Shown here in pieces: positions 2,790 through 64,000 of a stretch of DNA of 64,000 nt. The position numbers and the translations under genes are program-made. The notes beneath the pieces were generated by a model, which saw nothing but the letters and a program-made list of their open reading frames with translations, had not been told where the DNA came from and ran no database searches. This DNA is from Escherichia coli. Lineage in GTDB: Bacteria; Pseudomonadota; Gammaproteobacteria; Enterobacterales; Enterobacteriaceae. Each line of letters opens with the position of its first letter. The first letter of the stretch is position 1. The stretch lies in the NCBI RefSeq assembly GCF_041248615.1, contig NZ_CP158426.1, one strand, 5' to 3'.

Positions 2790-3155
2790 GTCGACAGGGA
2801 GTCAGACAACGAAGTGAACATCAGGATGATGACACTTCTGAAGGACACACCAGGATGGTGTTTCAGGGAAAGGCTTCTGGATGAAGCGAAGAGGATGACG
2901 CAGGACGCGTTAAAGGACACCTCCAGGATGGAGAATGAGAACCGGTCAGGATGATTCGGTGGGTCAGGAAGGCCAGGGACACTTCAGGATGAAGTATCAC
3001 ATCGGGGTGGTGTGAGCAGGAAGCAATAGTTCAGGATGAACGATTGGCCGCAAGGCCAGAGGAAAAGTTGTCAAGGATGAGCAGGGAGCAACAAAAGTAG
3101 CTGGAATGCTGCGAAACGAACCGGGAGCACTGTGAATACAGTGCTCCCTTTTTTT
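2790..3155 (+). ncRNA. csrB: CsrB small RNA (CsrA-sequestering), 5' end approximate
   Basis: About 365 nt with many repeated CAGGATG / AGGA(U)G GGA motifs; ends in hairpin 3123-3148 plus T7 run 3149-3155; located between syd and yqcC. Confidence 0.85.
3123..3155 (+). terminator. Intrinsic terminator of csrB
   Basis: 11-bp stem GGGAGCACTGT/ACAGTGCTCCC, loop GAAT, followed by TTTTTTT. Confidence 0.8.
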
Positions 3156-22277: not shown

Positions 22278-22672
22278 GAGTTCCCCGCGCCAGCGGGGAT
22301 AAACCGGCTGATGCGGTTCTATCACCACCACAAATTATGAGTTCCCCGCGCCAGCGGGGATAAACCGCAAATACGCGCGAGTGGCTAACCTGGAATCATG
22401 AGTTCCCCGCGCCAGCGGGGATAAACCGGCGCGGACGATAATCAGGGGCAGGCAGGGCACGAGTTCCCCGCGCCAGCGGGGATAAACCGGAAATCCAATA
22501 TTAACGTGGTGTTTTCAAAACGAGTTCCCCGCGCCAGCGGGGATAAACCGCGTTTAGCTCCGCAATGCTGGATATCACTGATGAGTTCCCCGCGTCAGCG
22601 GGGATAAACCGTATGGGAAACAGTAGCAACGGGCACACTGGCGGAGTTCCCCGCGCCAGCGGGGATAAACCA
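22278..22672 (+). CRISPR. Orphan type I-E CRISPR array (CRISPR-II / 2.1): 7 repeats, 6 spacers of 32 bp, leader on the left
   Basis: 29-bp repeat GAGTTCCCCGCGCCAGCGGGGATAAACCG at 61-bp period; repeat 6 has the GCGTCAG variant; last repeat ends ..AAACCA; AT-rich leader with GTTGGTAGATTGT at 22221-22233. Confidence 0.95.
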
Positions 22673-23140
22673 CCATATAACCCGTAATCTCTTTCTAAAG
22701 TTTTTATATTAGCAGTACTCGTAATAAGCAACATATCCACGTAACACCTCATGTTCAAAATAGCTCTCCATATATGAGAAGTTCACAATTATCGATACAA
22801 AAAATCAAATTTAATTAAAGTGTTAGTTGTATAATACTTAAATCATTAAGAAATTATCATATATTATTTTTTTAATATTGAATTGATGTTTGTTAGTTTT
22901 TTCTTTAGGATAATAGATTGTTTTTTAAGCTTATTATTCATTGATTAAGTAATAAATCTGGAAATTTGTCTTTGTTTTGAGGCTAATGAGTGGTTTTACA
23001 TAACCGTCTCTATAGACTGTTGATGAATAGTTCTTATGAATAAAGATATCCAGTTCATACTTTAAATGAAAATTGATAAAGTACGGTTTGCGTTGTCTTT
23101 TATTCTAAGGACATCGAGTGTAGTTAATATTCCTTGTAAC

Positions 23141-26321: not shown

Positions 26322-26388
26322 CAGTTACCAGAGATAATGAGAAAGGTAACTTCCCTCTCGCGGGGGAAGTTACCTTTCTTTTTTTTTT
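26322..26388 (+). promoter_or_regulatory. ygcW leader: conserved 5' hairpin (antiterminator candidate) overlapping strong intrinsic terminator 25 nt before the start codon
   Basis: Hairpin AGUUACC/GGUAACU (26323-26351) with loop AGAGAUAAUGAGAAA; terminator 14-bp stem AAAGGTAACTTCCC/GGGAAGTTACCTTT (26342-26377) plus T10 (26379-26388). Confidence 0.65.
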
Positions 26389-48374: not shown

Positions 48375-49074
48375 GTGTTCCCCGCGTCAGCGGGGATAAA
48401 CCGGACTCAGTTTTTCCCTGCTGACCCTCCGAAGGGTGTTCCCCGCGTCAGCGGGGATAAACCGCCATGCCGCGCCAGCTCTGCGAAACAGCCCGCGTGT
48501 TCCCCGCGTCAGCGGGGATAAACCGATCCAAAGATAGTCGCCCCGATTGCCAAATTGGTGTTCCCCGCGTCAGCGGGGATAAACCGACGGTATTGTTCAG
48601 ATCCTGGCTTGCCAACAGGTGTTCCCCGCGTCAGCGGGGATAAACCGGCGGCACTAACGTGATAATCACGATCAATTATGTGTTCCCCGCGTCAGCGGGG
48701 ATAAACCGTGACGGTCCGAAAAAAGTTGGCTGAAGAAATTGTGTTCCCCGCGTCAGCGGGGATAAACCGGTTATTGCGTTTTCCTCACCTGCGGCGAGTC
48801 CGTGTTCCCCGCGTCAGCGGGGATAAACCGCATTCCGTGCAGCGGTCTGAATAATTGCCGCGGTGTTCCCCGCGTCAGCGGGGATAAATCGAGTAACGAC
48901 GAAAAAATACAGGCACGGGCCAGGTGTTCCCCGCGTCAGCGGGGATAAACCGATCCCCGCAGGTATCGCGCAGCTATCGATCGAGTGTTCCCCGCGTCAG
49001 CGGGGATAAACCGGACGCACTGGATGCGATGATGGACATCACTTGGAGTTCCCCGCCCCTGCGGTAGAACTCCC
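48375..49074 (+). CRISPR. Type I-E CRISPR array (CRISPR-I) adjacent to cas2: 12 repeats (last degenerate), 11 spacers of 32 bp
   Basis: 29-bp repeat GTGTTCCCCGCGTCAGCGGGGATAAACCG at 61-bp period; repeat 9 ends ..AAATCG; terminal repeat GAGTTCCCCGCCCCTGCGGTAGAACTCCC; leader 48279-48374 with GTTGGTAGATTGT at 48319-48331. Confidence 0.95.
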
Positions 49075-49094
49075 AGCTCTCATTTTCAAACCCA

Positions 49095-61422: not shown

Positions 61423-62849
61423 TGGCATTTGATGATTTACGCAGCTTTTTACAGGCGCTTGATGACCACGGCCAGTTACTGAAAATCAGCGAAGAGGTGA
61501 ACGCGGAACCGGATCTGGCAGCCGCAGCCAACGCCACCGGGCGTATCGGCGACGGCGCGCCCGCGCTTTGGTTTGATAATATTCGCGGCTTTATCGATGC
61601 CCGCGTGGCAATGAACACCATCGGTTCCTGGCAGAACCACGCGATTTCCCTCGGCCTGCCGCCAAACACCCCGGTTAAAAAACAGATTGATGAGTTTATC
61701 CGCCGCTGGGATAACTTCCCCATTACCCCGGAGCGCCGCGCCAATCCAGCCTGGGCGCAGAACACCGTCGATGGCGACGAGATCAACCTGTTCGATATTC
61801 TGCCGCTGTTTCGTTTAAACGACGGTGATGGCGGTTTCTATCTCGATAAAGCGTGCGTGGTTTCCCGCGATCCGCTCGACCCGGATAACTTCGGCAAGCA
61901 GAACGTCGGCATCTACCGCATGGAAGTGAAGGGCAAACGTAAGCTCGGCCTGCAACCGGTGCCGATGCACGATATCGCTCTGCATCTGCATAAAGCGGAA
62001 GAACGCGGTGAAGATCTGCCGATTGCCATCACCCTGGGTAACGATCCGATCATCACCCTGATGGGCGCCACGCCGCTGAAATACGATCAGTCTGAGTACG
62101 AAATGGCGGGCGCGCTGCGCGAAAGCCCGTACCCGATCGCCACCGCCCCGCTGACCGGTTTTGATGTGCCGTGGGGCTCGGAAGTGATCCTCGAAGGGGT
62201 TATCGAAAGTCGTAAACGTGAGATTGAAGGGCCGTTCGGTGAGTTTACCGGCCACTACTCCGGCGGGCGTAACATGACCGTGGTGCGTATCGATAAAGTC
62301 TCTTACCGTACCAAACCGATTTTCGAATCGCTCTATCTTGGTATGCCGTGGACCGAAATCGACTACCTGATGGGGCCTGCCACCTGCGTGCCGCTGTATC
62401 AGCAACTGAAAGCCGAGTTCCCGGAAGTGCAGGCGGTAAACGCCATGTACACCCACGGCCTGTTGGCGATTATCTCCACCAAAAAACGCTACGGCGGCTT
62501 TGCCCGCGCGGTGGGCCTGCGTGCAATGACCACGCCGCACGGTCTGGGCTACGTGAAGATGGTGATTATGGTCGATGAAGACGTTGATCCGTTCAACCTG
62601 CCGCAGGTGATGTGGGCGCTCTCCTCGAAAGTGAACCCGGCAGGCGACCTGGTGCAGTTGCCAAATATGTCCGTGCTGGAACTCGACCCTGGCTCAAGCC
62701 CGGCGGGGATCACCGACAAGCTGATTATCGACGCCACCACGCCTGTCGCCCCGGACAACCGTGGTCACTACAGCCAGCCGGTGGTGGATTTACCGGAAAC
62801 CAAAGCCTGGGCTGAAAAACTGACCGCTATGCTGGCCGCACGTAAATAA
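61422..62849 (+). CDS. ecdC: UbiD-family reversible hydroxyarylic acid decarboxylase (EcdC/KpdC-like)
   Basis: 475-aa ORF; start overlaps ecdB stop. Confidence 0.8.
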   Translation: MAFDDLRSFLQALDDHGQLLKISEEVNAEPDLAAAANATGRIGDGAPALWFDNIRGFIDARVAMNTIGSWQNHAISLGLPPNTPVKKQIDEFIRRWDNFPITPERRANPAWAQNTVDGDEINLFDILPLFRLNDGDGGFYLDKACVVSRDPLDPDNFGKQNVGIYRMEVKGKRKLGLQPVPMHDIALHLHKAEERGEDLPIAITLGNDPIITLMGATPLKYDQSEYEMAGALRESPYPIATAPLTGFDVPWGSEVILEGVIESRKREIEGPFGEFTGHYSGGRNMTVVRIDKVSYRTKPIFESLYLGMPWTEIDYLMGPATCVPLYQQLKAEFPEVQAVNAMYTHGLLAIISTKKRYGGFARAVGLRAMTTPHGLGYVKMVIMVDEDVDPFNLPQVMWALSSKVNPAGDLVQLPNMSVLELDPGSSPAGITDKLIIDATTPVAPDNRGHYSQPVVDLPETKAWAEKLTAMLAARK

Positions 62850-62859
62850 GGAGAACAAG

Positions 62860-63096
62860 ATGATTTGTCCACGTTGTGCTGATGAACAGATTGAAGTGAT
62901 GGCGAAATCGCCGGTAAAAGATGTCTGGACAGTCTATCAGTGCCAGCATTGCCTCTATACCTGGCGCGATACCGAACCGCTTCGCCGCACCAGCCGCGAA
63001 CATTACCCGGAAGCGTTTCGTATGACGCAGAAAGACATTGATGACGTGCCAATGGTGCCGAGCATTCCGCCGCTGCTGGCGGAAGGTAAGCGTTAA
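62860..63096 (+). CDS. ecdD: Small decarboxylase subunit (EcdD/KpdD-like), Cys-rich
   Basis: 78-aa ORF MICPRCADEQIEVMAKSP..YQCQHCLYTW with two CxxC pairs. Confidence 0.7.
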   Translation: MICPRCADEQIEVMAKSPVKDVWTVYQCQHCLYTWRDTEPLRRTSREHYPEAFRMTQKDIDDVPMVPSIPPLLAEGKR

Positions 63097-63136
63097 TAAA
63101 AAGTGCCGGGTAGTGGCTTTGCTTTACCCGGCCTCA

Positions 63137-63793
63137 TTACTTTATTTTATAAAATGACAGCCGCCCGCTTTTCGGCGATCCGGTATCAATATAAATCTGG
63201 TTTGCGAACGTCTGAATGTTATCAAACATCATATGTCCAAATATAAAATAATCAGCGCCGTTTATTTGTTGTAACTCGCCATTAAGCGATTTCTGCACAC
63301 GATCAACAGGCCAGAGTAATTCTCTCTCCGCTATTTCTTTGCCAAAGAGATATTCACTCCCCGGATAATCTGCATGTGCGATGACATATTTTATTATGTC
63401 GTTAGTGATTTCAATAATATGTGGAAGGTGATGAAATTTCAGCAACAGATCTATTGCTTCTTGTTGTTCCGTCTCATTTAATTCAAAGAACCAGTCGCCG
63501 CCGCTGGCAAGCCACATATTGCCATCGCCGGTCGCGAACGCATCCAACGCCATCGCTTCATGGTTGCCTTTAACCGATGTAAACCAGGGCTGGTTTAGCA
63601 GGTGCAGCACGTTAAGACTCTCCGGCCCACGATCAATATTATCGCCGACAGAAATAAGTAAGTCGGCTTCAGGGCAAAAAGAGAGTTGATGTAAGCGGGA
63701 TTGTAATAATTGATAGTCACCATGAATATCACCAACGGCCCATATATGGCGATAGTGATGGGCATTGATTTTTTGATAGCGTGTAGATGGCAT
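63137..63793 (-). CDS. pphB: Serine/threonine protein phosphatase 2 PphB (PrpB)
   Basis: 218-aa ORF with metallophosphoesterase motifs GDIHGD, GDNIDRG, GNHE. Confidence 0.8.
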   Translation of the reverse strand: MPSTRYQKINAHHYRHIWAVGDIHGDYQLLQSRLHQLSFCPEADLLISVGDNIDRGPESLNVLHLLNQPWFTSVKGNHEAMALDAFATGDGNMWLASGGDWFFELNETEQQEAIDLLLKFHHLPHIIEITNDIIKYVIAHADYPGSEYLFGKEIAERELLWPVDRVQKSLNGELQQINGADYFIFGHMMFDNIQTFANQIYIDTGSPKSGRLSFYKIK

Positions 63794-63898
63794 GGTTTTA
63801 CCCTGTAAAATAAGCTTTCCTATTATACAGGGTATTTTTATTTGATTCGTCAGTTGTCGTTAATATTCCCGATAGCAAAAGACTATCGGGAATTGTTA

Positions 63899-64000
63899 TT
63901 ACACCAGACTCTTCAAGCGATAAATCCATTCCAGCGCCTGACGCGGGGTGAGTGAATCCGGGTCCAGGTTTTCCAGTGCCTCGACCGCAGGCGACGTTTC
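63899..64000 (-). CDS. mutS: DNA mismatch repair protein MutS, C-terminal end only (5' part beyond window)
   Basis: Minus-strand frame ends ...[15 protein letters not shown]; stop at complement 63899-63901. Confidence 0.75.

Follow-up and report, generated by a model that had tools for sequence, protein, structure and literature searches.

An inverted repeat spanning the promoter and leader of Escherichia coli pphB, with predicted effects on transcripts that cross the promoter from outside

Hairpins that sequester the Shine-Dalgarno (SD) sequence within a 5' UTR, as in the RNA thermometers of the ROSE, FourU and rpoH kinds, place the SD in their 3' arm just before the start codon, and a thermometer is expected to be of marginal stability and to melt at physiological temperatures. 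Another use of inverted repeats is reported from insertion sequences: IS10 and IS50 are said to be protected in this manner from outside transcription, in work ascribed to Davis, Simons and Kleckner (1985) and to Schulz and Reznikoff (1991). In IS200, the left end carries both a terminator and an SD-sequestering repeat (PMC4513863). An SD-covering hairpin controls translation only when the mRNA holds both of its arms, and it is on this point that we correct a plausible reading of the hairpin upstream of pphB, namely that it gates translation of the gene. The locus lies at the end of a 64,000-nt window of E. coli DNA, by which we mean the whole stretch that was analysed, and within 36 bp the -10 box, the transcription start and the SD of pphB overlap with a terminator-like hairpin of the opposite strand. 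The genes and elements around it are as follows.

63137-63793, minus strand: pphB coding sequence, a metallophosphatase of 218 aa
63104-63132, minus strand: hairpin between pphB and the last decarboxylase gene, terminator-like for pphB only
63865-63893, minus strand: hairpin 1, the mutS terminator, directly 3' of the mutS stop codon and with a poor U-tract on the mutS strand
63799-63834 (core 63801-63832), no strand assigned: inverted repeat at the pphB start, centred on the pphB transcription start

Read along the minus strand, the mutS stop codon (63901-63899) is followed by hairpin 1 (63893-63865), a 32-nt A/T-rich spacer, the pphB hairpin and the pphB ATG. The sequence and coordinates that the initial annotation had given for the pphB hairpin were confirmed, and the ATG at 63793-63791 is the annotated start codon. 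On the minus strand 63832-63801 reads CCCUGUAUAAUAGGAAAGCUUAUUUUACAGGG, followed by UAAAACC and the ATG. The stem consists of seven outer pairs (CCCUGUA/UACAGGG), one U.U mismatch and six inner pairs (AAUAGG/CUUAUU), so that 13 of 14 positions are paired around an AAAG loop; in this strain two extra flanking pairs lengthen it to 63834-63799. Its folding energy was -18.3 kcal/mol against a mean of -7.4 for dinucleotide shuffles (z -4.17), with none of 200 shuffles matching it, and an identical fold was obtained in a 161-nt context. The AGGG at 63804-63801, in the 3' arm and 7 nt from the ATG, is indeed the only SD-like sequence near the start codon, being the sole G-rich run in the 40 nt 5' of it, and in the fold it is wholly paired with CCCU at 63832-63829.

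By energy alone, the hairpin is ordinary for this genome. Loci of 40 nt folding at -16 kcal/mol or better numbered 124-139 in the window compared to about 83 in simulated sequence, and because GC-rich coding sequence yields many such folds, raw fold energy is uninformative on significance. Near-perfect inverted repeats, defined as at least 12 Watson-Crick pairs with at most one mismatch and a loop of 3-10 nt, were found six times in the 64-kb window, the pphB repeat included, versus 0-1 times in ten simulations (about 0.5 expected). A dispersed repeat of the REP, BIME or ERIC type was ruled out, since the median copy number in E. coli genomes is one. When 62800-64000 was scanned against Rfam with E-values of up to 10 allowed, the only hits were three chance ones far below gathering scores.

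The scan for minus-strand folds also showed two runs of strong small hairpins about 60 nt apart (about 22285-22680 and about 48500-49085), for which CRISPR arrays are the probable identity; in the related genome CFSAN018748, type I-E cas genes are present and a CRISPR is annotated near the second of them. E. coli CFSAN018748 (NZ_CP028192.1) matches the last 300 nt of the window at 100% identity. The full 64 kb is not collinear with that record position by position, and there are indels or mosaic segments further upstream in the window. Only 29 of 5,404 genomes matched the window end at 99% identity or more.

The position of the pphB transcription start decides how the hairpin can act. Cappable-seq enriches primary 5' ends. 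The distance from the pphB start codon to the transcription start is given as 23 nt in K-12 (RegulonDB v10.5) and 22 nt in O157:H7 EDL933 (Cappable-seq), and no further pphB start is given (PMC10469882, Table S5); the K-12 value may be computed, leaving the EDL933 value as the one that is certainly experimental. The hairpin sequence of K-12 and of O157:H7 is identical to that of the window, in which the two distances fall at 63816 and 63815.

63815-63816, minus strand: pphB transcription start, at loop nucleotides A17 (63816; distance 23) and G18 (63815; distance 22)
63822-63827, minus strand: TATAAT, the pphB -10 hexamer, in the 5' arm, its last T 6-7 nt before the mapped start
63819-63832, minus strand: 5' arm, CCCUGUAUAAUAGG, promoter DNA upstream of the mapped start
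63801-63814, minus strand: 3' arm, CUUAUUUUACAGGG, most of the 22-nt pphB leader, including the SD-like AGGG

A TATAAT-like hexamer ending 6-7 nt before the mapped start is what a sigma-70 promoter calls for, and a perfect TATAAT stands 28-33 nt before the ATG in eight pphB orthologue contexts whose surroundings cannot be aligned (E. coli including K-12, E. albertii, Superficieibacter, L022, Salmonella, L026, E. marmotae and Escherichia sp. E1V33). In Salmonella, pphB lies on the other side of mutS. The -35 region is a poor match and no full consensus promoter was found. Genomic SELEX has placed RNA polymerase holoenzyme and H-NS on the mutS-pphB spacer. The promoter predicted by Shimada, TTAACG-17-TAAAAA, would place the start about 10 nt above the mapped one, and the TATAAT supersedes it. 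At 63815, the start nucleotide of EDL933, G, T or A each occurred at appreciable frequency among 63 metagenome contigs and the fetched genomes, and the start nucleotide is therefore not fixed.

Because transcription starts in the hairpin loop, the native pphB mRNA lacks the 5' arm. It carries the 3' arm only, in a short unstructured leader of 22-23 nt, and when RNA was folded from the 63815 start the hairpin was absent. This disposes of the proposal that pphB translation is structurally gated, since a hairpin whose loop contains the start is unable to gate the normal pphB message. Nor did the suggested dependence on temperature hold when folding was carried out at different temperatures. RNA beginning at 63833, which forms no other stem, folded at -24.0 kcal/mol at 20 C and -14.1 kcal/mol at 45 C with the SD paired throughout; even with both arms present, as an upstream start would provide, the SD was paired with a probability above 0.998 at every tested temperature (unpaired probability below 0.002 at 20-45 C). 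There was thus no melting between 20 and 45 C, which rules out an RNA thermometer. The alternative suggestion, dependence on a factor, sits poorly with the finding that the loop is the most variable part of the intergenic region, which argues against a loop-recognising factor.

Among the features that mark a riboregulator, a base-paired SD is present in the fold. The gene's own mRNA holds one arm rather than both (start at 63816/63815, with TATAAT inside the 5' arm), the stem has neither the marginal stability nor the physiological melting of a thermometer, and it matches no curated RNA family. What speaks for gating of pphB by a hairpin in its 5' UTR, opened by temperature or a factor, is the full pairing of the SD when both arms are present and a high cost of opening the ribosome-binding site, about 15 kcal/mol if the whole hairpin is transcribed, which ranks third among 56 neighbouring genes (this background being computed on the sequence of the E. 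coli CFSAN018748 record). A minor upstream start is also conceivable, with TAAAAT/TCAAAT at 63845-63840 and the TTAACG-17-TAAAAA of the SELEX study as candidates; only the former would start above the whole hairpin, whereas the latter would start within the 5' arm and leave the SD unpaired. Set against this are the sole reported pphB start, which lies in the loop and is consistent with the conserved TATAAT, the lack of melting at 20-45 C, the lack of any Rfam thermometer or riboswitch match, and the unconserved loop, which makes a factor-binding loop unlikely. We consider gating of the gene's own message hardly credible.

An open reading frame of 43 aa (minus strand, 63929-63798) begins inside the end of mutS in another frame, spans both hairpins and has its stop 4 nt short of the pphB ATG. 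It was rejected as a leader peptide or a source of translational coupling, as a C-to-A change in K-12 creates an early stop codon; the frame is not conserved because this stop interrupts it, and it is probably spurious.

Since the native RNA starts in the loop, the complete hairpin occurs only in RNAs that cross the promoter from outside, and most likely it stops or silences them. Such RNAs may come from either side, and on the plus strand UUUUUAUUUGAUU comes next after the hairpin.

63835-63845, plus strand: U-tract, UUUUUAUUUGA, adjoining the hairpin; on the minus strand the same letters are the A-rich spacer of the pphB promoter

The T-rich run that had been pointed out after the hairpin on this strand is present: the tail UUUUUAUUUG has 8 U in 10 nt and a tail score of 5.4, and the hairpin-plus-tail discriminant, as implemented here, was +17.6 compared to -42 for the minus strand. 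The plus-strand fold reached -13.7 kcal/mol for the hairpin alone and -18.1 kcal/mol over 81 nt (63780-63860), with CCC/GGG closing the stem. A stable, G/C-based stem with a U-rich tract directly 3' of it is what defines an intrinsic terminator. Two of the other five long inverted repeats of the window score as plus-strand terminators, at 26340-26379 (+65) and after rpoS (+36), and the score of the pphB hairpin is comparable to that of the rpoS terminator. E. albertii retains the U-tract block in a spacer that has otherwise diverged; as a counterpoint, the A-rich tract could be kept as promoter spacer instead of as a U-tract.

The decarboxylase operon, on the plus strand, ends at 63096 and has no good plus-strand terminator of its own; the hairpin at 63104-63132 scored +1 to +23 on the minus strand and -9 to -19 on the plus strand. 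Read-through from the operon would run antisense through pphB and then meet the pphB hairpin and its U-tract, which would halt such transcripts before mutS; their source would be the decarboxylase operon here and ygbI in K-12. A Rho-termination region antisense to pphB is reported at K-12 2860217 (minus strand, score 5.9; PMC7815308), a position inside pphB that corresponds to about 63336 on the plus strand of the window. K-12 therefore does transcribe pphB in antisense, with Rho normally cutting these transcripts short, and because Rho already cuts inside pphB, little antisense RNA may reach the hairpin in K-12. The Term-seq tables searched for PMC7815308 list no RNA 3' end at the hairpin on either strand (K-12 28596xx-28597xx), expression there being low. 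The suggestion that the hairpin could terminate read-through from the decarboxylase operon holds at the level of sequence, where plus-strand termination is the best-supported role of the hairpin.

RNA may also arrive on the minus strand, from mutS. Hairpin 1 has its better U-tract on the plus strand, and because the one on the mutS strand is poor some mutS RNA may continue past hairpin 1; the pphB hairpin, having no U-tract on the minus strand, would not terminate it there. RNA passing the weak mutS terminator would instead refold the hairpin and lock the SD in a stem of -18 kcal/mol, and pphB on this RNA would go untranslated and be exposed to Rho. According to the folding model, the SD would be sequestered in any RNA entering from upstream, mutS read-through being one example, and a second role for the hairpin, the silencing of such mutS RNA, is plausible. 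PMC7815308 reports a Rho-termination region at K-12 2859755 (+) with a score of 4.5, a position that falls 3 nt past the pphB hairpin; the read counts over 800 nt on its upstream and downstream sides were 71/39 in untreated cells and 69/172 with bicyclomycin. This signal fits untranslated read-through RNA terminated by Rho, and equally it could come from bicyclomycin de-repressing an H-NS-bound pphB promoter. As both readings fit, the signal is indecisive. C exceeds G over the first 200 nt of pphB. In an RNA-seq compendium, mutS and pphB were scored as not co-transcribed, and read-through may for this reason be negligible.

Taken as a whole, we lean towards an account in which the hairpin leaves pphB's own mRNA unregulated, acts as a terminator on the plus strand and buries the SD in read-through RNA. 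A stronger proposal is that insulation from read-through is the selected function, such that only transcripts from pphB's own promoter are translatable, mutS RNA is locked and terminated by Rho, and the U-tract is incidental. This is the sole model that explains why the -10 box lies in the 5' arm, the start in the loop and the SD in the 3' arm, and it also draws on the Rho-termination region at the mutS-pphB junction and on the weakness of hairpin 1 as a terminator. In Superficieibacter (L021), where pphB directly follows mutS, an unrelated hairpin has the same layout: CUCACCU(N14)AGGUGAG (2960-3000) stands directly after TATAAT, and its 3' arm serves the pphB orthologue as SD. For E. coli, E. 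albertii and L021, the SD was predicted to be less accessible in read-through RNA than in RNA begun at the gene's own start; the five other contexts did not show this, and the effect in L021 was weak, a fraction of 0.06 of shuffled controls equalling it. An alternative cassette, in which a divergent gene of 177 aa lies upstream of pphB, has no such hairpin. The scoring of mutS and pphB as not co-transcribed tells against the proposal, as does the absence of covariation described below, and we think it less likely than not.

A further step, which we regard as somewhat less likely still, would be that chromosomal pphB uses the insertion-sequence trick in full: translation from its own promoter only, leaked mutS RNA locked and passed to Rho, and a hairpin that thereby defines and protects the 3' end of the mutS mRNA. 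If insulation is true, the mechanism known from insertion sequences extends to ordinary chromosomal genes and helps to explain where mutS transcripts end, and the hairpin of the same layout in Superficieibacter would represent a convergent design for genes downstream of a weakly terminated neighbour.

Of 5,426 complete E. coli genomes, 5,209 carry a single copy of the 96-nt region, at 0-3 differences. Across these 5,209 genomes, other Escherichia species and 63 metagenome contigs, the arms were nearly invariant and the loop highly variable; common polymorphisms numbered none in 28 arm positions versus four in 36 loop and spacer positions, the start nucleotide included. The covariation set comprised 12 distinct hairpin variants from E. 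coli and other Escherichia (five lineages), Pseudocitrobacter and the 63 metagenome contigs, and among these 12 there were no compensatory changes and no pair altered on both sides, with 9 of 15 pairs never varying. Four single-side changes fell in the core stem: C28U, seen twice, gives G.U in the sense RNA, and U24C and G30A leave G.U pairs in the antisense RNA alone. With two substitutions favouring each strand, the wobble test is silent on which strand folds. Conservation is likewise no proof of selected pairing, because each arm is constrained separately, one by the -10 box and the other as a leader with the SD.

In contrast, hairpin 1 of mutS shows stem changes with pairing retained across genera. 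Altered stems that still pair occur in E. albertii, through a paired 1-nt deletion (ATTCCC/GGGAAT to ATCCC/GGGAT), in E. marmotae, as CCCGACGGCA/TGCCGTCGGG, and, with yet other sequences, in Superficieibacter and L022. In E. coli PapRG-06-5 (L012) the hairpin 1 loop is approximately the reverse complement of the usual loop, with further changes, and the E. albertii loop resembles it. The flipped loops suggest a template-switch event.

These observations bear on the idea that the pphB hairpin has no function, having arisen as a by-product of template switching in an AT-rich spacer while its arms are held by separate constraints. The absence of compensatory changes would be expected under it, as would the variants that break the stem on both strands; the flipped loops of hairpin 1 in some strains mark template switching at the locus, and more distant pphB orthologues manage without the hairpin. 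However, 13 paired positions of 14 exceed what a 6-nt -10 box and a 4-nt SD would require, repeats of this kind are rare in the window (six against about 0.5), the arms are free of the common polymorphisms seen in loop and spacer (0 in 28 positions versus 4 in 36), and the adjacent U-tract would be an additional coincidence. We think this idea unlikely.

The same pattern of conserved arms around a variable centre resembles an operator, and the symmetry centre coincides with the transcription start. The palindrome might therefore act as DNA, either as an operator for a dimeric repressor or as a cruciform that confers sensitivity to supercoiling, and in genomic SELEX pphB is listed as a CRP target and H-NS is noted in the spacer. 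Judged by eye against consensus sequences, no known operator consensus fits, and the centres of the perfect outer half-sites lie about 25 bp from each other, a long distance for a simple dimer. On the same basis a LexA site was rejected (its box needs CTGT-N8-ACAG and the hairpin has N20), as were a CRP site (no TGTGA/TCACA half-sites) and a CsrA site (the GGA of the loop is not conserved). The locus has no linked candidate regulator, since the neighbouring one varies from strain to strain (ygbI or a MarR-family gene) while the hairpin is constant. A role at the level of DNA appears very unlikely to us.

The pphB signals sit at the edge of the recombination-prone mutS-rpoS region, and several rearrangements were seen at the junction. 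In E. coli KCTC 2571 (L015, about 1543) an IS1 lies inside the hairpin right after TATAA and most of pphB is gone, and in E. coli JCC-EE 7 (L094, about 1615) an IS1 lies 12 nt after the mutS stop codon and pphB through part of otnC is gone. The two insertions are independent, and it seems that IS1 targets the A/T-rich hairpin region and that deletions end there. In E. marmotae, Escherichia sp. E1V33 and some genomes labelled E. coli (R32_14_1F), an opposite-strand gene of 177 aa lies between mutS and pphB (L029/L030, 2375-2908; L095, 863-1396; L008); it has no Pfam hit and a signal-peptide-like N-terminus, and pphB in this arrangement has a different leader without the pphB hairpin. The pphB orthologue of Klebsiella spallanzanii is flanked on either side by toxin genes of the hok/gef family (L023, 2534-2686 and 3736-3888) and adjoins the same decarboxylase operon as in the window.

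Both proposed roles of the hairpin are of known kinds and would probably have little significance beyond the locus. Like RNA thermometers and other SD-sequestering 5' UTR hairpins, the pphB hairpin has the SD in its 3' arm before the start codon; unlike ROSE, FourU and rpoH, it has the transcription start inside its loop, a stem of -18 kcal/mol that stays closed up to 45 C, and no Rfam match. It resembles intrinsic terminators on the plus strand, in its stable stem, its G/C base pairs, the immediate U-rich tract (8 of 10) and a positive score. It differs from the usual ones in that it lies over a promoter and leader instead of at a gene end, the nearest plus-strand coding sequence ending about 700 nt upstream of it, and its score is terminator-like on one strand only. 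The insertion sequences come closest in layout. As in IS10 and IS50, the gene's own start lies inside the inverted repeat and the ribosome-binding site lies in the 3' arm, so that the native mRNA lacks the 5' arm and incoming RNA would hide the ribosome-binding site; as in IS200, a terminator and an SD-hiding repeat would together guard the 5' end. Unlike these elements, pphB is a chromosomal phosphatase gene and not a transposase gene, and its silencing is a prediction from sequence. The SD-sequestering repeat of IS200 lies inside the native 5' UTR, whereas that of pphB does not.
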